Positions 50,868 through 64,000 of a stretch of DNA of 64,000 bases are shown in pieces. The notes under the pieces were generated by a model, which did no database searches, was not told the DNA's origin, and saw nothing but the letters and a program-made list of their open reading frames with translations. Source of the stretch: Bacteroidota bacterium (lineage in GTDB: Bacteria > Bacteroidota > Ignavibacteria > Kryptoniales > JAKASW01); contig JAJYIT010000018.1 in assembly GCA_021789975.1 (NCBI GenBank), forward strand, positions 6,290-70,289, written 5' to 3'. Positions within the stretch are counted from its first letter, which is position 1; each line of letters begins with the position of its first letter. A program made the position numbers and the translations under genes.

Positions 50868-53800
50868 CTATTTGATCAAGATGAGTTTCCTCACCGCGGT
50901 GAGCGATTTCCCGTTCTCCCCGACCGCCTGAATCTTGTAAATGTAGATCCCGCTCGACAATCTGCTTCCGTCAAAACGGACTTCATGGTTCCCAAACTTT
51001 TCGATCCCGTCCACCAAAGTGCAGACTTCTCTACCGAGTACGTCATACAATTTCAAAGTCACACGACTGTTCACCGGTAGATAATAATTGATAGTTGTCG
51101 ATGGGTTGAACGGGTTTGGATAGTTCTGTTCCATTCGAAAAGACTTCGGCAAATCACTCTTCAACGATTTGACGCCAAGCAAAATGTTGTCTGTTCCCCC
51201 GGCACCGTTGTACCGCGCTTTGAATTCCTGCAGGTAAAGGTTGGCGATGCGCTTGCTGTGAATGATGAGCACGTTTTCATCGTTGGATGTCTCGGCGGAA
51301 GTCGACCAATTGTGCGAGCCGGTTATGACAGTCTGATCGGCATCTGGATCCTCTGCATCAATGACGACATATTTGTGATGCAAATAGCCAGCAACGTCGC
51401 TTCCCTTAAGGTGAATATCGATTCCATTGGATTGGAGGAAGTTATATTGGTTTCCAGTGTCGGTATTGTTGTCCAGGAGAACTCTTACCTTATCACCGGC
51501 AGTCTTCTTCGCCACGAGTTCCTGCGACAGGTCGGATCGTGTAAATGTGAGCATACAAACGCCGACGGAGTAAGTCGCGGCTTTGAGAGCTTCACTAATA
51601 TGGAAGGTCGTTTGATCGGACGGACTAAAATACATGCTTAATGGAGTGCCGTTGATGTTGAACTTGTGGGGTGTGATGTCGAGTTTGTGCGAGCCGAACC
51701 TTGATTGAGAAGCACTCGGCGTATCGGTCGAGCTTCCCCACATTTCATTGAACTCCATCGTGTAGGCGTTCGCCAGAGCCTTGTCCTGTATTTCGATTAC
51801 ATTCTGTGCATCGTCGTTGTTCCCGGGATCGGTGGCGTTCCACGAACCGGTCCAGACCCAATCGTCCGTGAACGAGGTTGTGTCGCGGAAGTCGAACACT
51901 GCAAACTTGTCGTGCATTAATCCGGCTCCGGCGTCAACAGGGTCGAACGCGTCGGTGATGAATGGAATACTGTTCTTCATTGTGTTCATTGGAGATGTGT
52001 CTGAGTTCCCGTTTTCAGCGATCATCCTGATTTTCACTCCCCTTGCCTTCGCACTCAGCAGGTGGCTGGCTATCGTGCTGCCGACGCTGCCGCTCAGACT
52101 GTACAACGCGAGGTCTATGGAATATTTCGCGGAATCTATCCTCTCGATAAACTTGCCGGCTAAGTCTACCGTCTGGGCGTTTTCGCCGCGCGCCACCGAG
52201 ATGTCTACCGGCTTATTGAAGTAGACTTCCATCCTTCCGCTGGAGCCGACAGGAGAAGAGGTACTGAAAATCGCGTCACCGGTCGTATTTATACCATCTG
52301 CATCTTCAGCTGAAACCTGATAGTGGTACACCGTTGCCGGCGACAAATCCCCGAGATAAACCGAATGTATCGTATCCGGGGCAGTTACCGTAACAGAATC
52401 TGTATATGCCTGCGTCTTCCCGTACCTGGCCGTAACGGACGAAGGCGCAGCAGTCTTGAAATCTATAGTTACAGAATTGGATCTCAAATTGTTCTCCGCG
52501 GGTGCGATCGCGAAAATAGGTCCGACATGAGAGATAATATCGGCTGGCGTTCGTGGATTGATCTCGTAGTCCGAAAGGAACGGTGGACCCGGGGCCGGGG
52601 TCCCTCCTTTATATTGTTTCAGGATACCGACGACGTCAAATGATCCGGGAGGCACGCTCCAGGTAGGGGAAATGTAACCCCTGGTTGTACCGGTGACATC
52701 AGTGATTGTGCTGTTGGAAGCATTATAAGTTATATTGTTGATTCTCACCAGGCGACTCTCGTTTGGCTCAGAGTAATTTTCGCCGAAAGTTTGGTTCACA
52801 CCCGAGCATGCTAATACCAGGGGCTCGGGGAGCTGATTGTTGCGCGAGTAGATAGTCCAGTTTCCAGAGTCGGGCGATATTTCCGTCGTTCCGCGGTACT
52901 GCTGAACAATGCCGGTAAACTCGACACTGTCGCCGACCTGAAACACATCAAAGTAAGTGTAGTTGAATATGTTTATTCCACCCGTAGCATCCTGTAAAAA
53001 CAGATTTGTCTGTGATGAGCTTGTATTTGCTGTAATGATGCCGCAGACAGTGACGCTGGTGCCGACGCCATACGGTGCTGCCGGAACTCCCTGTGAGTCG
53101 TTATTGTGGAGGTCGATAATCCGTACCAGCTTCGTAACCATAACGCGTGGCAGCTTCATTATCGGTGACGGAACAGCTGTGTCGACTGCAGTCGACGCGA
53201 GGAAAACAGCCGTCATACTTGAATCCGGAACTGTAACCGAATGTACCATGATCTCTCCGGTGTCTACCTGAGTGATCGCGGCACCTGTTGCACTTATCGT
53301 GTCCTGCGAGACAGCGCAAGCGGCGGACGAGAATGAATTGCCGGAAATCGTGACATCGGTTTTATTCATCGACCATGTGAACGACGGCGGGACGACAACC
53401 ACGATTTTCGCGATGGTCGCGGAATCATCCGATGCAATCTTGATTGTGAAATCCGCGGTCTGCTTCGCCAAAAGTTTCGCTGGGGAGACCGTGGCAGATC
53501 CGATTCCACTCCCGGGTGCACCTAAGGAAGCCGCTTCGCCTGCAACAGCCAGCCCAGTCCCCGATCCGTAGACATACCACGTGCCGCCGGAGCTGGTTGC
53601 GCCGTATGGTACGATCCTGAAATTAACGACCGTGCCTGCGGGAAGATTCTGCAATTCGGTTACGCCCGAAAGATCTATCGGGGTGATGCTGCTGCCACTG
53701 TTGCTAGTCGGAAACTGGTTACTGAAGTCGCCGATGGTCGCCCAGGAACCGCCGTTGAGTTGGTATTGCCAAATTGCATTCGGCGGACCGGTTGTAGATC

Positions 53801-54140
53801 GTCTGTAGTTCAGGCTGATCTGCTTGATCGAGGCGGAGTATGAAAGATTTACCGTGATGCCGAATGTGACATAAGCATTGGCGGCAAGCGATGCGGCGGC
53901 CGTCGGATAATTCCAAGTATTGCCGCCCCAGGCGTTCGATGTTGCGGACCCGGATGTGCCGACTCCGGCCCCTCGGGTGAGGCCGAGACTGTTTGTGATC
54001 CCTGGTGCGATGGTTGAAGCTTCCATCCCCTGAGTGCCGAAAGCCGTTTGGCCGGTGACCTGCCAGCCAACTAGAACAGGTTGTCCCCATACGCCGGCAA
54101 CGATAGCTAAATTTAGTAGAAGGTGTGAAAGGAACTTCAT
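50868..54140 (-). CDS. large secreted phospholipase-D-superfamily (two HKD motifs) enzyme with a T9SS C-terminal sorting domain
   Basis: Signal peptide after the ATG at 54140 (RBS GGGGAGAG). HKD1 is HDKFAVFD..GSWN (51891..51914). HKD2 is HHKYVVID..GSHNWS (51357..51380). There are OB-like/Ig-like repeats and a fibronectin type III (FN3)-like domain. The C-terminus is NYPNPFNPSTTINYYL...KLILIK. Confidence 0.85.
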   Translation of the reverse strand: MKFLSHLLLNLAIVAGVWGQPVLVGWQVTGQTAFGTQGMEASTIAPGITNSLGLTRGAGVGTSGSATSNAWGGNTWNYPTAAASLAANAYVTFGITVNLSYSASIKQISLNYRRSTTGPPNAIWQYQLNGGSWATIGDFSNQFPTSNSGSSITPIDLSGVTELQNLPAGTVVNFRIVPYGATSSGGTWYVYGSGTGLAVAGEAASLGAPGSGIGSATVSPAKLLAKQTADFTIKIASDDSATIAKIVVVVPPSFTWSMNKTDVTISGNSFSSAACAVSQDTISATGAAITQVDTGEIMVHSVTVPDSSMTAVFLASTAVDTAVPSPIMKLPRVMVTKLVRIIDLHNNDSQGVPAAPYGVGTSVTVCGIITANTSSSQTNLFLQDATGGINIFNYTYFDVFQVGDSVEFTGIVQQYRGTTEISPDSGNWTIYSRNNQLPEPLVLACSGVNQTFGENYSEPNESRLVRINNITYNASNSTITDVTGTTRGYISPTWSVPPGSFDVVGILKQYKGGTPAPGPPFLSDYEINPRTPADIISHVGPIFAIAPAENNLRSNSVTIDFKTAAPSSVTARYGKTQAYTDSVTVTAPDTIHSVYLGDLSPATVYHYQVSAEDADGINTTGDAIFSTSSPVGSSGRMEVYFNKPVDISVARGENAQTVDLAGKFIERIDSAKYSIDLALYSLSGSVGSTIASHLLSAKARGVKIRMIAENGNSDTSPMNTMKNSIPFITDAFDPVDAGAGLMHDKFAVFDFRDTTSFTDDWVWTGSWNATDPGNNDDAQNVIEIQDKALANAYTMEFNEMWGSSTDTPSASQSRFGSHKLDITPHKFNINGTPLSMYFSPSDQTTFHISEALKAATYSVGVCMLTFTRSDLSQELVAKKTAGDKVRVLLDNNTDTGNQYNFLQSNGIDIHLKGSDVAGYLHHKYVVIDAEDPDADQTVITGSHNWSTSAETSNDENVLIIHSKRIANLYLQEFKARYNGAGGTDNILLGVKSLKSDLPKSFRMEQNYPNPFNPSTTINYYLPVNSRVTLKLYDVLGREVCTLVDGIEKFGNHEVRFDGSRLSSGIYIYKIQAVGENGKSLTAVRKLILIK

Positions 54141-54182
54141 GTCTCTCCCCTGGCGATTGATTTGTGCTGCAAAACAGAAAGA

Positions 54183-54233
54183 GCTGCGGCTCACGCGAGT
54201 GCACGACCACTCGCGTGAAAACTAACCCGCAGC
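54183..54233 (-). terminator. nested strong hairpin / intrinsic terminator between two T9SS cargo genes
   Basis: Outer stem GCTGCGG/CCGCAGC. Inner perfect 10-bp stem CACGCGAGTG/CACTCGCGTG (54192..54217). On the minus strand it is followed by TCTTTCTGTTTT. Confidence 0.6.
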
Positions 54234-56391: not shown

Positions 56392-56662
56392 AATATCCTC
56401 CTATTTTTTGAAATGAGATTAATCGTGAAAGGCTTAGATTGTGGTCTAATTGAAAAGGTTATTGCGCTATCCCTGACCTCTACCTACCGCAAACCTCAAG
56501 CGGCTATCCAAGGCTGCACACCGAGCCAAGTTATCTTTCCCACACGCTCCGGGTCAGCCCGCCATGGCACTCGCGCCATCAAAGGATAATATGGAACACA
56601 CCTATCTAAATGTCAAATGTTCCATTATATTATTGTGCAGCAACAACATCAGGGAGGCAACC

Positions 56663-59600
56663 TTGAAGATCTTAGTTTTCTCGACCTTCCTTTGCGTCTC
56701 GGCCGAACTTGGGTCCGCCCAAGGCGTGAAGATTAACGAGATCATGTATGGTCCTAAAGGCGGGGAACCGGAATGGATAGAACTGTTTAACGCCACTCCG
56801 GATCCGGTGAATCTCAAAGGATGGAAACTCCGCCACCATGCCACAAAGTGGTACGTGATCACAGACTCGGATCGATATATCCTCCCCGATTCCTTCATCG
56901 TGCTGACAAAGTCCGACACGATATTCTCTTTCCGTCAGATCGACACCTCCCTCGCTCTTATTTGCGGCTCCCTGCCCACCAGCTTCCTGAACAACTCCGG
57001 GGATACAATCTCAATTCGTGATTCAACCGACGCTCTTGTTGATTCGGTCTACTATGAGCCCTCGTGGGGCGGTTCAGACGGGAAATCACTTGAGAGAGTA
57101 TCTATCGAGCTTTCCCCTTTTTTACCTGACACCTGGGGAACATCAGATGATAGTTCCGGTGGTACACCAGGAAGACGGAACAGCATCGCCGCCAAAGATT
57201 ATGACCTTGCAGTTCGGTCCTTCACTGCATCCATTTCGTTAGCTGATTCGACCGCATCTTTCAAAGTGCAGATCGTCAATAAAGGAGTACATTCCTCTTC
57301 TCCGTTTTCAGTAAACATTTATCTTGACTACGATAACGACAACATATGCCGGTCAGATGAGTTGGTAGTAACGGTTGCAAACGTTCCGGGTCTGGCGCAT
57401 GGCGACTCGGTAGAAATCTCCAGGCAGGTTGTCATCGCAGTGGATCAGATTCCTAAAGCCTGTGCCATAATAGCTTTTTCCTCTGACCAAAATCCCTCCA
57501 ATGACTCACTGTGGAGTAGAATGCAAGCATCTTACCCGAGACGATCACTGGCTATTAATGAGATCATGTATCATCCGGGCAAAGGAGAACCGGAATGGGT
57601 GGAGCTTTGCAGCCGTTCTATCAACTCCATTAATCTCCGTGGCTTTAGACTGGGTGACAATTCGGGGACAACTTACCCGATTTCGGGATCGGACTTTTAT
57701 CTGCACTCAGACTCATTCGTTGTTGTTGCAGACGATTCCAGCTTCTTTGTCGCACACCCTACATTGCATAATGATGTCCTTATAGCGAGCATCCCGCCCC
57801 TCAACGATGGTGGTGACGCAGTAGTGATTCGCGACGAGACCGGAAACCTTATTGATACTGTGCAGTACTCGCCATCATGGGGTGGAAACACCGGGGGCAA
57901 GTCACTTGAAAGGATTCTGCCGGCAGGAGGCTCGAACGACCCTCAGAACTGGGAGACATCCTCAGATTCTACGGGAAGCACTCCGACGACTATGAATAGC
58001 GTGACTCCGCGCGACTACGATCTCGCTCTGGGGTACGTTAGCTACTCTCCTCATCAGGTGCAATCTGGTGGTAGTGTAACGCTGAGATTCTCGATCGTCA
58101 ACCGAGGGTTGAAGCCCTCAGGAGCGGCATCTGTCATCCTCTTTAGAGATGAAAACGCAAATGGCTTTTGCGATCCTTCCGAAGAAACAGAAGTAGCTCC
58201 TTTGACGAACATCATTCCGGGGGACTCTGCCGCTGTCAAGTTTTCCCTGAGCAGCCTCACATCTGGGGTTCACCGATTAGGAATATACATAGAGTACCCG
58301 GATGACCAGGTAGCGGCAAATAACACCGCTATCATTTCGATAAATGTCGGACTTCCCGCAGCCTCTGCAGTTATTAACGAGATTATGTATGCACCGAAGG
58401 CGCCGGAAGAAGAATGGCTGGAGATTTACAACGCCACCGACAAAGTTATAGACCTATCCAACTTTAGAATCGAGACGCATGGAGGCAGCCGGAATATTCT
58501 CAGCGAGTCATTGATTGGGCCCGGAAGTTTTGTAGTAGTATGCAAAGACTCTTCTCCGGCAAACTCTCACTATTTTATCCCCGACTTAATCTTACAATCC
58601 GTGCCCTCCCTCAGCAACACAGGCGATTGGATAACTTTGTCCGATGACCTCGGAAATCTTCTCGACTCAGTCAGCTATGTACCATCTTACGGCGGGGCAG
58701 GCGGAAAATCGCTCGAGCGAATCGACTATCTGGCAGGAAGTGATTCAGCCAACTTGAGCGAGTCCATGGATTCGACCGGTGGAACTCCAGGGCTGGTGAA
58801 CAGCGTCGCAAAACTCCCTTATGATCTTCATCTTAGAGGACTAGATTGTCCGCCCTCGGTCTCGCCCGGAGAGCCCTGCGAATTGAGACTCGTCATTCAA
58901 AATGAAGGCAGGAACCCGGTTGGCGGGATAAATATCGATGCCAAAGTCGTGAGCGAGCTTGACGGAAGGACCGTCTTTTCCGAGAACAAAAGCTCGGCTT
59001 CGGCGCTCTTACCCGGTGATAGCACGATTGCGACGTTTACCCTCACTGATCTCAAACCCGGGTCGTATATGATCCTCGGAAGCATCTCCCAGAATCAGGA
59101 TATGCGCCGTTGGAACGATACCGCGACGGCGAGTCTCAAGGTCCGATTTGAACTGCAATCCGTCATAATAAACGAGATCATGTTCTCAAAGAGCGAGCTC
59201 GGCGATTACTTCGAAATATTTAACCGGTCAACCGACCCGGTTGATCTTTCCGGATGGATTTTCCGCGTTGGCTCAGGTCAGCCTAAACCTGTCCAGCCTC
59301 AAAGGATGCATGCATTGGAACCGGGTTCCTACTTCGTCGTTGCTTCCGACTCTTCAATAATTCCATCCATTGGCGACACAAGCTCGGTCCGCATCGCCTC
59401 AACGCTGACCCTCCGGAATGATGGTGATTGCATCGTGGTAGTAGACCCCTCCGGCGCGATGGTGGACAGCGTGAATTACCTTCCATCATGGCACAACGCC
59501 GACATCGGCAACACGACCGGCAGAGCGCTCGAAAGAATAAATCCGTCGCTGCCTTCGAACGACAAGTCAAGTTGGTCGACCTCCGTTTCGCCTCTCGGTG

Positions 59601-59977
59601 GGACACCTGGCGGCAAAAACAGCATTTACGTGAACACCGGAAACCAGATCAATCCCGGTTCAATATCCGTCGCTCCCAATCCATTTTCACCCGACGGTGA
59701 CGGCATCGACGACTTTACGTTCGTCAGCTACTCTTTCTCCGTGTCATCGGTGAAGGTGCGGATGAGAATCTTCGATTCAGTCGGAAGGCTGATCGCGACT
59801 CCTTTCGACAACACAATCATGCCATCGGCGGGTAAGCTGGTCTGGGATGGAAGAGACGGATCGGGGAAGATAGTAAAGTTCGGGCTTTACATCCTGCTGG
59901 TGGAGGTATCGGGTCCGGGGGGAAATAACTTATCGACTTTCAAGAAGCCTCTGGTGGTAGCCAAGAGGATGCGGTAA
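56663..59977 (+). CDS. secreted protein with four tandem LTD plus Ig-like (CARDB-like) modules and a gliding-type C-terminal domain
   Basis: INEIMY/INEIMF...EW(I/V/L)E(L/I) LTD starts at 56732, 57554, 58373 and 59168. Each is followed by SLER...GGTPG..NS and an Ig-like segment. The C-terminus is NPFSPDGDGIDD. TTG start 56663 lies 5 nt after AGGGAGG, with a signal peptide. Confidence 0.85.
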   Translation: MKILVFSTFLCVSAELGSAQGVKINEIMYGPKGGEPEWIELFNATPDPVNLKGWKLRHHATKWYVITDSDRYILPDSFIVLTKSDTIFSFRQIDTSLALICGSLPTSFLNNSGDTISIRDSTDALVDSVYYEPSWGGSDGKSLERVSIELSPFLPDTWGTSDDSSGGTPGRRNSIAAKDYDLAVRSFTASISLADSTASFKVQIVNKGVHSSSPFSVNIYLDYDNDNICRSDELVVTVANVPGLAHGDSVEISRQVVIAVDQIPKACAIIAFSSDQNPSNDSLWSRMQASYPRRSLAINEIMYHPGKGEPEWVELCSRSINSINLRGFRLGDNSGTTYPISGSDFYLHSDSFVVVADDSSFFVAHPTLHNDVLIASIPPLNDGGDAVVIRDETGNLIDTVQYSPSWGGNTGGKSLERILPAGGSNDPQNWETSSDSTGSTPTTMNSVTPRDYDLALGYVSYSPHQVQSGGSVTLRFSIVNRGLKPSGAASVILFRDENANGFCDPSEETEVAPLTNIIPGDSAAVKFSLSSLTSGVHRLGIYIEYPDDQVAANNTAIISINVGLPAASAVINEIMYAPKAPEEEWLEIYNATDKVIDLSNFRIETHGGSRNILSESLIGPGSFVVVCKDSSPANSHYFIPDLILQSVPSLSNTGDWITLSDDLGNLLDSVSYVPSYGGAGGKSLERIDYLAGSDSANLSESMDSTGGTPGLVNSVAKLPYDLHLRGLDCPPSVSPGEPCELRLVIQNEGRNPVGGINIDAKVVSELDGRTVFSENKSSASALLPGDSTIATFTLTDLKPGSYMILGSISQNQDMRRWNDTATASLKVRFELQSVIINEIMFSKSELGDYFEIFNRSTDPVDLSGWIFRVGSGQPKPVQPQRMHALEPGSYFVVASDSSIIPSIGDTSSVRIASTLTLRNDGDCIVVVDPSGAMVDSVNYLPSWHNADIGNTTGRALERINPSLPSNDKSSWSTSVSPLGGTPGGKNSIYVNTGNQINPGSISVAPNPFSPDGDGIDDFTFVSYSFSVSSVKVRMRIFDSVGRLIATPFDNTIMPSAGKLVWDGRDGSGKIVKFGLYILLVEVSGPGGNNLSTFKKPLVVAKRMR

Positions 59978-60092
59978 TCGAATCAAGAATAGGTTTCCTT
60001 TTTTGACGGGACAAAGTTAGCTTTTGAGAAGGTTCTGAGGTTCCAGGTTGAAACCTCATACGACAAACCCCACAAACTTCAACGGAGAACCG

Positions 60093-60617
60093 ATGAAAGC
60101 CACTGTTGATTTGATAGCGGAGAAGATACTCGACAACAAGATCTTCGTGATTCGCGGCCGCCGTGAAATGCTCGATTTTCATCTGGCGGAATTGTACGGC
60201 GTACAGAACCGGGTTCTCCTGCAAGCTGTAAAAAGGAATGATTCCCGTTTCCCGGACGATTTCATGTTCCAACTCTACGAAAGGGAGTTCGACATCTTGA
60301 GATCACAATCTGTGACCTCAAGTTGGGGCGGACGGAGGTACCGGCCTCATGCTTTCACCGAGCAGGGAGTCGCAATGCTCTCGAGTGTCCTTCGGAGCGA
60401 AAGAGCTGTCCAAGTCAATACCGCCATCATGAGAGTCTTTGTCAAACTCAGAGAAATCTCATCGGCAAATAGAGAACTGGCCGCAAAGCTGAAAGCGCTT
60501 CACATGAAGCTTGAAAAACACGATGAAGAAATCCAGGGTATATTCAAGGCGATCGCCGAGCTGATGGCCCTCCCACCGGAAAAGCCAAAGAACCCCATCG
60601 GATTTAGAAGGGACTGA
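60093..60617 (+). CDS. ORF6N-domain protein with a C-terminal coiled-coil (paralog of 15186..15764)
   Basis: IRGRREMLDFHLAELYGVQNRVLLQAVKRNDSRFPDDFMFQL ... [34 protein letters not shown] 60093 follows GGAG. The stop lies 10 nt before the helicase ATG. Confidence 0.8.
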   Translation: MKATVDLIAEKILDNKIFVIRGRREMLDFHLAELYGVQNRVLLQAVKRNDSRFPDDFMFQLYEREFDILRSQSVTSSWGGRRYRPHAFTEQGVAMLSSVLRSERAVQVNTAIMRVFVKLREISSANRELAAKLKALHMKLEKHDEEIQGIFKAIAELMALPPEKPKNPIGFRRD

Positions 60618-60627
60618 CGATCTCACA

Positions 60628-63201
60628 ATGCCTCTCTCCGAACACCACTCTGAACTTCAAAAGCGAATCTCGCTCTACGTTACGGCGCTTCAAAACGAGA
60701 TCGAAGCGTTGCGCAATTATTCATCGCGAAACTATTCTCTTTCATCAGGGAAATTCCTCGGGAACTCGGAAGCGGAATTCTTGTACGAGTTCAGGCTCGA
60801 CGACGAAATCAGAATTGTAGAAGACGTTCCGATTGAGATTGAAATCGAAGGTGATGTTGTTCCTGGCACAGTCGTGTCCGTCGAAGGTGACCGCATCGTT
60901 CTAGTGCTACAATCACACATCGGAGACACTGTAGACCATGCGACTCTGAGAACCGCACCCTTCTTCCTCCTCGAACAGCTCGCCGAACGGCTGGAGTCGC
61001 TTCAAGATGAAAGTGTAAGAAATGTCGAGGCTCTCTTCAATGAAGATGAAGCCGAGGAATACGACCAGGACTTGCTTCTAGACACCGGCAACCTAAACGA
61101 GTTCCAAATCTCGGCAGCGCGGTCGGTCGTAAAGAAGAACATATCGTTCGTGTGGGGCCCACCGGGTACTGGAAAGACACAGACCCTTGCTTTCGCAGCT
61201 GCAAACCTTGTATCGCTCGGCGAAAAAACGCTTGTCCTATCAAATACGAACATCGCGGTCGATGTCGCTTTGTCCAAAACGCTCGGATACCTGAAGGATG
61301 CAGACGAATATTTCGCCGGTAAGTTTATTCGGTTTGGCATTCCGCGTCTTCCTGATCTAGATGAATACCCATGGTCGATGCCTCAGTATGTCTGCAGAGA
61401 CAAGAACCCGGCACTTTACGCGACCATAGATCAAATCGAATCACAGGTTCGAAGCATAACTACTCGCGCCGGTGGCTCCAGGTCGAAGCGCAAGCCCAGG
61501 AACAACCAGATGCCAAAACTTCGCGAGGAGCTTTCCGCGCTCAGGCAGGAGGCATACGTCAAAGAGAATAAGATCGTCCAGCACGCCAAGTTGGTGGCAT
61601 GTACTGCAGCGAAAGCGGCAATAGCATCGCAGGTCTTCAACAGGAAGTTTGATGCCGTTCTCATAGATGAAGCCAGCATGCTCTACCTGCCGTATGTCGC
61701 CTATGCCGCTTCACTAGCGAAGAAGCATGTAGCGATCTTCGGCGACTTCATGCAAATCCCGCCTATTACCCAGTCATCTACAAAAGTGCTGAATGTGTTG
61801 TCGTCCGATATTTTCCGCGAGACTAAGCTTCACCGCTACATGACGAAGTCCCACCCGAGAATGAATGTTCTCGAAGTTCAATACCGCATGCAGATTCCAA
61901 TAATGGATCTAATCAATCAAAAGGTATACTCAGGCAGGCTGAAGGCAAGTGATCAGATAAAGGCAGCAGAACAGAAGGAGGATCCGGTGGTCTTCTACGA
62001 TTCCTCCGGACTTGCTTCACAGTCATTCCGTGAGGCCACAACCAATAGCAGGATCAATATTCTGTCCGGGCTGGCTGCAATCGATCTCGGGGTGGAGGCA
62101 CTCAAGCATGGTGCGAAGTCTGTTGGAATCATCACGCCATACCGGGCACAGATGAGATTTCTCCGGGGTGTCCTAAACAGCATGTCTCTCGATAGCATGG
62201 TCATCTCGGCCGCGACCGTCCATACCTTCCAGGGAAACGAACGTGATGTGATCGTGTTCGATTTCGTCGACGATAAACCGCTGCCGCTTGGAATTCTCCT
62301 TTCAACTTACCAGAGAGAAGGTGATGACGACGTGTCCGATGGAGAGCGACTCCTCAACGTGGCAATGACACGCGCCAGGAAGCGGTTGCTCTTCGTCGGC
62401 AACTTCGAGTATCTGTCTGCAAAGGCGAGCCAGGACTCACTACTCCGGTTTGTCCTTGAGAAACTCCGGCGCGAAAAAGCAATTTCGCGATTGCAGTTGG
62501 AAGACCGATCGGCGGACAATTATGCAACTAAGAACATTCAGGCTCTTTCCCTTCACCATGGTTACGCTGAATCGGTAGTGCGACTCTTAAGAGACATACA
62601 GGAGTCGAGCGAGGAATTAAAACTCATTCAACCCGTCAAGGCGAAACTTCAATTCTTCCGTTATGTCTTGAATAAAGAGGTCGAGTCTTCAAAGGATTTT
62701 GCTTCTCTCGAAATGAGTCTCATTAAAGAGAAACTCAAGAATACAAACCTGATCACATCGGACAAGGCAGACCTCTTCTTCTGGGTGATCGATGGAAGGA
62801 TTCTCCATGTATTCGATATACTGAACCGGGATGGAATCAGCAGCATACGATTGACCGCACCGGAAGTTGTCAGAGTGTTCAATTACATACTTCCGCGAAA
62901 GAGTTCGAGGTTGACCGGTACGGGCGGTCGAAAAGTGGACGCCCATTGTTCCGTCTGTGGTGGTCGTCTGGAATTGAAGGACAAGAACGGGATGATCGTA
63001 GCGCAATGTGCCGATAATAAATGCGTGACTGTACCTGCTGACGGAGGGATAATTGAGGCCATCCTCGAAGAGGAGGGACGAACATGTCCGATCGACGCAG
63101 GCAGAATCAGGATAAGAAAAGGACGGCGCGGATTTTTCGCCGGCTGCGCAAACTACCCGGGCTGCAATTGGACCGCCGAGCTATCGGAGATACTTAGGTG
63201 A
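60628..63201 (+). CDS. Upf1/DNA2-like superfamily-1 helicase with C-terminal topoisomerase-type zinc ribbons
   Basis: Walker A GPPGTGKT (61156..61179), [43 protein letters not shown], and [11 protein letters not shown]. The zinc-ribbon region 62947..63171 contains CSVCGG...CADNKC and CPIDAG...GCANYPGC. Confidence 0.9.
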
Positions 63202-63419
63202 GAAATTTGGAATTCGAATCTGGAATATCAAGTTGGGGGGACACAAAGAAATTGCCTTACGCCTTCACGGAATTGGGAGTCGCCATGCTCTCGAGCGTGC
63301 TCAACAGCAAACGCGCGGTCATGGTGAACATAGAGAAACCCCACAGACCAATGGCACTCCAACTCGGAGTGAATTTGGAACCCTACGTAACCAGCAAGAA
63401 AGGAAACCGGTACAACTAG
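63198..63419 (+). pseudogene. doubly deleted ORF6N-domain gene relic
   Basis: It retains only ...[35 protein letters not shown] joined directly to a C-terminal-like [12 protein letters not shown]. The N-terminal ~70 aa and the coiled-coil are missing. The frame is closed by TAG immediately upstream, and its GTG overlaps the helicase TGA. Confidence 0.6.
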
Positions 63420-63421
63420 AC

Positions 63422-64000
63422 TTGTTATCTATACCAGTCATCGAATCTCCCGATGGGCCGAACAGCCTCAGACTTTACAACTTTGCGCTTCTCGTGCTGG
63501 CTCTTGTCCTCGCCGGTTGCATGGAGAGTGTCACCCCTGTTATTCTCAGGTGCCCCGACACTCCGATCATTCACCATGGTGATGCAACTTTCTACAACGC
63601 AACGGGTGCCGGCGCATGCATGTTCGATTCGTCAAAGACAGACCTCCTTGTAGGAGCTATGAATCCCTTCGACTATGACGGCTCTCAGATCTGCGGTGCG
63701 AGTGTGGAGGTAACCGGACCAAAAGGAACGGTTGTCATAAGAATTGTAGATCTCTGTCCGGAGTGCGGCGAAGGTGACATAGACTTAAGTCCACAGGCAT
63801 TCTCCCAGATTGCCGACACTTCTCTCGGTCGAGTGCCGATTACCTGGTTTGTGATGGCTGCAAATGTCACCGGCCCAATTCTGTACCACTTCATGCAGGC
63901 AAGCAGCCGGTATTGGACGGCAGTGCAAATCAGAAACAGCCGCTATCCGATCTACAGTATCGAATACCTTTCCCCGTCCGGTGGATGGCGCAATATCAGC
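63422..64000 (+). CDS. bacterial expansin-like (EXLX1/YoaJ-type) lipoprotein, 3'-partial at the window edge
   Basis: Manual translation: lipobox LVLAGC, then a double-psi beta-barrel (DPBB) domain (HHGDATFYNATGAGACMF ... VVIRIVDLCPECGEGDIDLSPQAFSQIA). This is followed by a carbohydrate-binding module family 63 (CBM63)-like domain (ITWFVMAANVTGPILYHFMQASSRYWTAVQIRNSRYPIYSIEY). There is no stop before base 64000. The start is uncertain; TTG 63422 is proposed. Confidence 0.75.
   Translation, partial: MLSIPVIESPDGPNSLRLYNFALLVLALVLAGCMESVTPVILRCPDTPIIHHGDATFYNATGAGACMFDSSKTDLLVGAMNPFDYDGSQICGASVEVTGPKGTVVIRIVDLCPECGEGDIDLSPQAFSQIADTSLGRVPITWFVMAANVTGPILYHFMQASSRYWTAVQIRNSRYPIYSIEYLSPSGGWRNIS

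Follow-up and report, generated by a model that had tools for sequence, protein, structure and literature searches.

The nuclease-helicase immunity system Nhi is built on an Upf1-like helicase core of superfamily 1 (SF1). Mokosh likewise combines an Upf1-like helicase with a phospholipase D (PLD) nuclease, and mutants of the PLD active site lose defence (Millman et al. 2022 preprint); its type II (MkoC) is an anti-phage system of one gene, in whose product an Upf1-like COG1112 helicase is followed by a PLD-fold domain. A single-gene candidate of another kind, PDC-S05 of the PADLOC collection, is an ORF6N/RhuM-type protein, one representative of which, on its own, reduced plating about 1000-fold for T7 and T5 and about 10-fold for T4 in E. 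coli B (bioRxiv 10.1101/2024.09.26.614923). Both kinds of gene come together in the 64,000-nucleotide (nt) stretch of Kryptoniota DNA analysed here (from contig JAJYIT010000018.1 of a metagenome-assembled genome; hereafter the window), where an ORF6N gene, an Upf1-like helicase gene and the relic of another ORF6N gene follow one another in the same direction. The original prediction, made from the letters of the window, saw in them a possible uncharacterised two-component module. We favour, with moderate confidence, a different reading, namely that the locus consists of autonomous units that are adjacent by chance and do not form one integrated system, the two side-by-side units both probably being of defence type. 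The ORF6N gene belongs to an already catalogued candidate family; what is new is the helicase, a variant with a dead PLD domain and added zinc ribbons.

The helicase was followed through 25 Kryptoniota lineages, comprising the window, 22 species genomes and two further contigs. It is intact in every one (the orthologues in the 24 other lineages are 51–84% identical), and in every one the locus is directly preceded by the gene for a secreted protein of about 1100 amino acids (aa) with LTD and CARDB domains, which is its sole constant neighbour. Where nothing is inserted at this junction, as in most of the deepest branches, the LTD stop codon and the helicase ATG have a 4-bp overlap (ATGA); examples are seen around position 6001 of L008, L012, L017, L028 and L034. 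This phylum-wide pairing of an extracellular LTD protein of type IX secretion system (T9SS) type with a cytoplasmic helicase is odd. Synteny downstream of the helicase is not conserved among these relatives.

The ORF6N genes come and go around this constant pair. An intact copy lies beside the helicase in 12 lineages, three retain a relic only, and 10 have none, among them the outgroups with 51–66% helicase identity. Full-length copies are directly upstream of the helicase in 10 lineages and only downstream in two (L006 and L027), and the window has a downstream relic, as do, independently, L015 and L020. The upstream copies of the nine other species are 60–72% identical to that of the window and end 6–12 nt before the helicase ATG. 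As for the check set out with the original prediction, whether an ORF6N gene is conserved immediately upstream of the helicase, the arrangement recurs in the phylum and is not general among the helicase orthologues, the deep branches being among those without the gene. In the ORF6N tree all upstream copies form one clade, and the third ORF6N gene of the window, which lies in an efflux operon, falls together with the downstream copies. Since the tree separates the two groups, two ORF6N lineages were captured independently; both have repeatedly decayed, and the helicase never has. In a neighbour-joining tree of the helicases, drawn without support values, the ORF6N-bearing lineages cluster, with L008 and L021 as exceptions.

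Beyond the phylum the association was not found at the loci surveyed. The ORF6N family is very large (at least 8000 homologues, all scored candidates falling below 1e-5) and highly conserved, its members occurring both in phages and on chromosomes, and copies from other phyla are 62–68% identical to that of the window. We surveyed 80 metagenome loci (L036–L115) and 80 viral loci, the latter kept from 95 viral stretches with an ORF6N gene, and tblastn revealed no relative of the window helicase in either set. The 117 immediate neighbours at the metagenome loci are spread over 104 Pfam families, most commonly antiporter-like subunits of nuo operons (Proton_antipo_M, 7 of 117), then subunits of type I restriction-modification (R-M) systems and further ORF6N genes; AAA_11 and AAA_12 are not among the commonest neighbour families listed. 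ORF6N genes appear to have been inserted repeatedly in nuo operons. Co-directional neighbours lie within 150 nt of the ORF6N gene in 30 of 58 cases upstream and 24 of 59 downstream. Within the window, the third ORF6N gene is lodged between the MFP and AcrB genes of a resistance-nodulation-division (RND) efflux operon, its stop codon 1 nt before the AcrB ATG. Because of this gene, and because homologues sit in nuo and type I R-M operons, the tight spacing at the helicase is a family habit of ORF6N genes and gives no evidence of a partnership. Searches from the side of the helicase gave a matching result, with no ORF6N gene found by tblastn in the distant helicase loci L116–L119 or among the called genes of L200–L204. 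With the helicase intact in 10 lineages that have no ORF6N gene, and no co-occurrence at the loci surveyed outside the phylum, the proposed module is unsupported as an obligate ORF6N-helicase system, and the ORF6N genes look like independent operon hitch-hikers.

The layout of the three open reading frames (ORFs) in the window (Table 1) is as originally described, in coordinates, spacing and overlaps. Exactly 10 nt separate the upstream ORF6N stop codon from the helicase ATG, and the GTG start of the 73-aa ORF overlaps the helicase TGA (GTGA). The bracketing of the helicase by ORF6N sequence in direct orientation is also borne out, by a DNA repeat in register between 60307–60410 and 63217–63320 (spacing 2910 nt, 73–82% identity). 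The upstream protein is a clear ORF6N protein (Pfam 4.6e-31, 107.4 bits against a cut-off of 27.8), with its DNA-binding domain at aa 15–99 and a helical C-terminal tail. It also matches the PADLOC model of PDC-S05 (PDLC04856) nearly from end to end (3.3e-54, positions 5–171 of 177), so that what had been taken for part of an uncharacterised system is a member of a family already catalogued as a stand-alone candidate. No functional study of the ORF6N domain came up in a literature search.

The 73-aa ORF matches PDC-S05 partially (5e-11) and the ORF6N profile (PF10543) at positions 56–86 only. At 23.5 bits it lies below the 27.8-bit cut-off, and we would therefore not count it as a functional member of either family. 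It is without about 65 N-terminal and about 52 internal codons. The original prediction called it a second, doubly deleted ORF6N copy. It is only 54% identical in amino acid sequence to the upstream protein over their common stretch, and it aligns instead with the full-length 186-aa downstream ORF6N protein of L006, the closest relative of the window genome, with which it has the tail KPHRPM...KKGNRxN in common. On this identity and the common tail we reject a recent tandem duplication of the upstream gene as its origin. The relic is what is left of a distinct ORF6N lineage on the downstream side and not a decayed copy of its upstream counterpart.

Table 1. Features of the ORF6N-helicase locus and of other parts of the window discussed in the text (positions are those of the window).
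Feature	Position	Strand	Description and basis
ORF6N gene, upstream	60093-60617	+	174 aa from ATG; Pfam ORF6N
Helicase gene, Upf1-like SF1B	60628-63201	+	857 aa; AAA_11/AAA_12, UPF1-class PDB matches
Helicase: stalk helix, six-stranded 1B beta-barrel, stalk helix (predicted)	60628-61050	+	aa 1-141; AlphaFold2 and Foldseek
Helicase: RecA1/RecA2 motor core, motifs Q to VI	61090-62469	+	aa 155-614; Pfam, PDB, motifs
Helicase: predicted PLD-fold domain without HKD motif (pseudo-nuclease)	62530-62922	+	aa ~635-765; AlphaFold2, Foldseek, alignment
Helicase: zinc ribbon 1 (C774, C777, C794, C799)	62941-63030	+	Alignment, motif location, model
Helicase: zinc ribbon 2, topoisomerase-I type (C820, D823, C840, C846)	63079-63183	+	Pfam Zn_ribbon_Top1
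Relic of second, downstream ORF6N gene	63198-63419	+	73-aa ORF; sub-cut-off ORF6N and PDC-S05 match
Secreted LTD protein	56564-59977	+	1137 aa; Pfam: 4 LTD, CARDB, T9SS-type C-terminus
Secreted 1108-aa protein	50868-54194	-	Two PLDc_2 matches and T9SS sorting domain
Third ORF6N gene (comparator)	15186-15764	+	192 aa; tblastn; Pfam ORF6N 6.7e-33
RND efflux gene, OEP	12542-13912		Pfam
RND efflux gene, MFP (HlyD_D23)	14090-15157		Pfam
RND efflux gene, AcrB-type (ACR_tran)	15766-18891		Pfam

That the large protein is a helicase of the Upf1/DNA2 type is supported by Pfam (AAA_11 5.7e-24, AAA_12 6.7e-31), by its best PDB sequence matches (UPF1, IGHMBP2, NAM7 and DNA2) and by the complete SF1 motif set that had been predicted for it, located at residues 157 (Q-like), 177 (I, GPPGTGKT), 202 (Ia), 347 (II, DEAS), 372 (III), 415 (IV), 530 (V) and 578 (VI). 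The regions on either side of the motor, in which nothing had been recognised, can both be assigned from AlphaFold2 models built with an alignment of homologues. The N-terminal model (aa 1–141, mean predicted local distance difference test score, pLDDT, 78.6) consists of a helix, a six-stranded barrel and a helix; its top Foldseek matches are Upf1 (2xzo_A) and IGHMBP2 (4b3g_A), with Dna2 (5ean_A) also among the matches, and the region can thus be identified as an ordinary stalk and 1B barrel of the canonical Upf1/IGHMBP2 type. The motor motifs, N-terminal stalk and 1B barrel are features in common with the eukaryotic Upf1, IGHMBP2 and Dna2 cores. Unlike these, the window protein has no CH or R3H domain and no Dna2 nuclease, and carries a bacterial pseudo-PLD domain and zinc ribbons at its C-terminus instead.

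The model of the C-terminal part (aa 600–857, mean pLDDT 78.8) has a PLD-superfamily fold at about aa 635–765, followed by the two ribbons. Foldseek matches to the fold include the C-terminal domain of TrmBL2/TrmB, NucT (6ehi_B), FAM83/BJ-TSA-9, Zucchini, phospholipases D and vaccinia F13. In an alignment with relatives that have the active-site sequence HEKxAxID...GSLN, the catalytic HxK...D...GSxN is gone from the window protein, with Asp in the place of His, Phe in that of Lys, and no Gly-Ser; the 877–973-aa relatives in the alignment share the loss of His, Lys and Gly-Ser. No H.K....[DE] motif is found anywhere in the helicase, and there is no Pfam PLDc match. In the distant relatives P0055, P0085 and P0115 (about 1040–1070 aa), Pfam recognises PLDc_2 in just this place, between motor and zinc ribbon, with the canonical HEKxAxID...GSLN retained, and these proteins match the PADLOC MkoC model as far as its PLD end. 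Model and alignment together indicate that the stretch following motif VI has a PLD fold and is catalytically dead. The original statement that the protein has no nuclease domain is accordingly right as regards an active nuclease motif and misses a PLD-derived domain that is present, though inactive by its residues. When the C-terminal 242 aa were used as a phmmer query, the listed hits beyond the query's own cluster and the Kryptoniota-type cluster P0035 aligned to the zinc-ribbon part only, and sequence is therefore uninformative on the pseudo-PLD domain outside the Kryptoniota clusters. The best structural matches, the TrmB/TrmBL2 C-terminal domain and the DUF1669 of FAM83, also have HKD residues missing; no sequence relationship with the window domain is detectable, and because they bind sugars or proteins their ligands cannot be transferred to it.

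The two C-terminal ribbons were found as predicted. The four cysteines of the first are invariant in a 23-sequence alignment and form a beta-hairpin ribbon in the model, without a Pfam match. The second matches Zn_ribbon_Top1 (PF01396) at residues 818–852 with 31.8 bits against a 32-bit cut-off, and its ligand set is C-D-C-C, D823 replacing the Cys whose absence (CPIDAG) had been pointed out. Across Kryptoniota this second ligand (within 63085–63096, aa 820–823) is either Asp (CPIDAG or CPVDAG) or Cys (CPICAG, CPVCAG or CPLCGG). Foldseek places the ribbon region with the structures of E. coli topoisomerase I bound to single-stranded DNA (4rul and 9gdh). The zinc ribbons of topoisomerase I bind single-stranded DNA; compared with the C-terminal ribbons of the bacterial enzyme, those of the window helicase number just two, and the second has its Asp in place of one Cys.

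Among described defence systems, the nearest PADLOC models are MkoA (2.2e-51) and MkoC (8.2e-31). Only the motor part is covered, helicase aa 156–616 corresponding to positions 616–1100 of MkoA and aa 424–668 to positions 782–1012 of the 1136 of MkoC. As in Mokosh type II, there is an Upf1-like helicase domain with an intact ATP-binding site, shown here by the AAA_11 and AAA_12 matches and by the Walker A (GPPGTGKT) and DEAS motifs. In contrast to Mokosh type II, the window protein is without the PLD active site HxK(x)4D...GSxN, it has no full-length match to MkoC or MkoA (about 660 N-terminal positions of MkoC are unmatched), it has two extra zinc ribbons at the C-terminus, and it is fixed at one chromosomal site throughout the phylum, whereas Mokosh type II is patchy in distribution. 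Since the model of Mokosh type II is matched by relatives in which the corresponding PLDc_2 domain is active, the helicase is a PLD-dead, zinc-ribbon-tailed variant of a Mokosh-II-like architecture and not itself a member of Mokosh; PADLOC assigns no complete known system at the locus. Nhi, also named in the original prediction, has an N-terminal nuclease where the window protein has, over its first 140 aa, the predicted stalk and 1B barrel, and no Nhi-named model was among the PADLOC matches (whether the PADLOC library contains one could not be checked); what the two have in common is the Upf1-like SF1 helicase core.

The location of the helicase family in defence islands, another check set out with the original prediction, is clear for its distant members. 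Known defence genes lie alongside in every examined locus of the distant full-length homologues (about 30% identity) and of the PLD-active relatives. They comprise PglZ-BrxL of the bacteriophage exclusion (BREX) system (twice, just upstream), SIR2, SIR2_2 with HerA/DUF87, an MmeI-like R-M gene, Dam and DUF87 with an integrase and a transposase, and SNF2 with DUF4391. PLD-dead homologues of 877–903 aa are located downstream of brxL in two unrelated organisms, at a distance of 93 nt in L204 (3875–8634) and with a SIR2 gene between in L117/L118 (2630–8712), and may represent a BREX-associated accessory gene. No helicase relative was found in viral contigs. In Kryptoniota, by comparison, the neighbours in the window are the secreted LTD protein and secreted PLDc_2 and DPBB proteins, with gyrA, gyrB and dnaN farther off. 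In relatives, VapBC is inserted at the LTD-helicase junction of L006 (5214–5873), and the junction of L031 (5363–6120) contains an IS200/RAYT-like ORF together with an 87-nt duplicate that runs from the 3′ end of the ORF6N gene across the spacer and takes in the initial 67 nt of the helicase gene. Because they also gather VapBC and an IS200-like gene, the helicase flanks can be read as a small permissive or defence-type islet.

These observations are compatible with the following sequence of events. The Kryptoniota helicase has the domain order of its wider family, from stalk and 1B barrel through RecA motor and PLD-fold domain to two topoisomerase-type zinc ribbons. The ribbons and the dead PLD domain would hold single-stranded nucleic acid, and the motor would translocate 5′ to 3′, the polarity expected of Upf1-like SF1B enzymes; we infer from this that the protein would act by binding, unwinding or displacing and would not cut. 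By analogy with the genomic company of the family in other phyla, a role in the surveillance of foreign nucleic acid is suggested. In Kryptoniota the gene has become fixed at its single chromosomal site behind the LTD gene. ORF6N genes lodge between co-directional genes and probably ride on the transcription of the host operon. One of their lineages would have entered a single time, on the upstream side of the helicase in an ancestor of a subclade; about 10 species retain it and others have lost it. The second would have entered on the downstream side, where it is decaying, the 73-aa relic being what the window has of it.

Several points weigh against chance adjacency of autonomous units. Two ORF6N lineages flank the same gene and no other ORF6N gene is found in the surveyed Kryptoniota flanks (about 260 kb) beyond the two helicase-side positions, which random insertion fails to explain; such an enrichment is compatible with a functional link or with an insertion preference. 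The upstream gene, kept intact 6–12 nt from the ATG in 10 species, shows selection and possible translational coupling. The PDC-S05 protein that was tested came from another organism and carried a Virulence_RhuM domain, whereas Pfam finds no RhuM in the window ORF6N protein. The defence role of the helicase is argued from distant neighbourhoods alone, because a phylum-fixed syntenic site is atypical for a defence gene, and the helicase tree is the neighbour-joining one, with no support values. It is the presence of two independent ORF6N lineages at one gene, with none in the remaining flanks, that keeps alive the idea of a genuine two-gene module confined to one Kryptoniota subclade, in which an ORF6N protein bound to foreign or regulatory DNA would recruit, activate or repress the PLD-dead helicase, compensating for its lost nuclease or serving as its sensor or regulator. 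The conserved, tightly spaced upstream clade, the presence of the second lineage on the opposite side of the helicase in L006 and L027, the relics of three lineages, the defence islands of the helicase family elsewhere and the candidacy of the ORF6N family as a defence gene all speak for such a module. We nonetheless regard it as unlikely, given the intact helicases of the 10 lineages without ORF6N and the three with relics only (all deep branches included), the failure of the pair to co-occur at 160 ORF6N loci and, by tblastn, at four distant helicase loci outside the phylum, and the equally tight spacing with the AcrB gene. A broader version would see in the PLD-dead, zinc-ribbon-tailed Upf1-like helicases (those of Kryptoniota and the 877–906-aa branch, whose genes follow BREX brxL or lie in other defence islands) a distinct nuclease-free class of defence or surveillance proteins that in Kryptoniota recruits ORF6N proteins as sensors or adaptors. 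With ORF6N proteins as exchangeable subunits this would account for two unrelated lineages on both sides of the gene, and it is speculative, its odds in our judgement being poor.

It is also improbable, to our minds, that the helicase has a housekeeping function in DNA or RNA metabolism (e.g. repair, or surveillance of R-loops or transcripts) with no defence role and with ORF6N genes as passengers. Its single syntenic site in every lineage, co-oriented and often overlapping with the LTD gene, its dead nuclease site, its absence from viral contigs and the replication genes farther along the contig would suit such a function; all six distant full-length loci examined nevertheless adjoin known defence genes, the nearest profile matches are Mokosh models, the flanks gather VapBC, IS200-like and PDC-S05-type genes, and the downstream synteny varies. 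Very much less credible is a composite mobile element marked by direct ORF6N repeats with the helicase as cargo. ORF6N sequence does bracket the helicase in direct orientation, and an inverted repeat of 14 nt, 13 of them complementary (59992–60005 and 63395–63408), surrounds the whole block, but the 4.5 kb scanned has eight inverted pairs of similar length, and its origin is likely chance. The same site behind the LTD gene is found in lineages that never had an ORF6N gene, the two ORF6N copies are of different lineages (49–54% aa identity), and the ORF6N-helicase-ORF6N block is so far unseen at unrelated sites, on plasmids or in phages. A search of the 10 occupied loci for a target-site duplication, or for a duplicated helicase 5′ end upstream of the ORF6N gene, detected only the local rearrangement of L031, which is 87 nt long and scores 142 where shuffled sequence averages 17; the score of the window is at shuffle level. 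Since L031 is the only such case, no general insertion signature was found. Chance adjacency of autonomous units remains the account that we prefer.

The surroundings of the locus add a few observations. In the source contig past the end of the window (L001, 15786–22574), genes for DinB, gyrA, gyrB, DciA, a RecF-like SMC_N ATPase and dnaN follow at about 4–10 kb, and because of these the locus probably lies near the replication-origin region of the genome. The 1108-aa PLDc_2 protein, encoded two genes upstream and divergently transcribed, has a counterpart in L006 as well; it is a possible extracellular nuclease or phosphodiesterase of PLD type. No NCBIfam family reaches its cut-off for the upstream ORF6N protein, the helicase or the 73-aa ORF. 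A promoter and terminator scan of 59700–64000 gave fewer hits than shuffled sequence and none between the three genes, and is uninformative for this phylum.

If the locus indeed consists of autonomous units, tight spacing and overlapping stop and start codons beside ORF6N/PDC-S05 genes would be unfit for inferring operon partnership, as these genes would wedge into efflux, nuo, R-M and helicase operons alike. The Mokosh-like architecture would have a sizeable branch that is nuclease-dead yet strongly conserved, and the role of a nuclease-free Upf1-like helicase in bacteria would become a question in its own right. The Kryptoniota lineages offer a natural series, with the same helicase beside an intact ORF6N gene, a decayed one or none, suited to asking whether genes of the PDC-S05 type act on their own.

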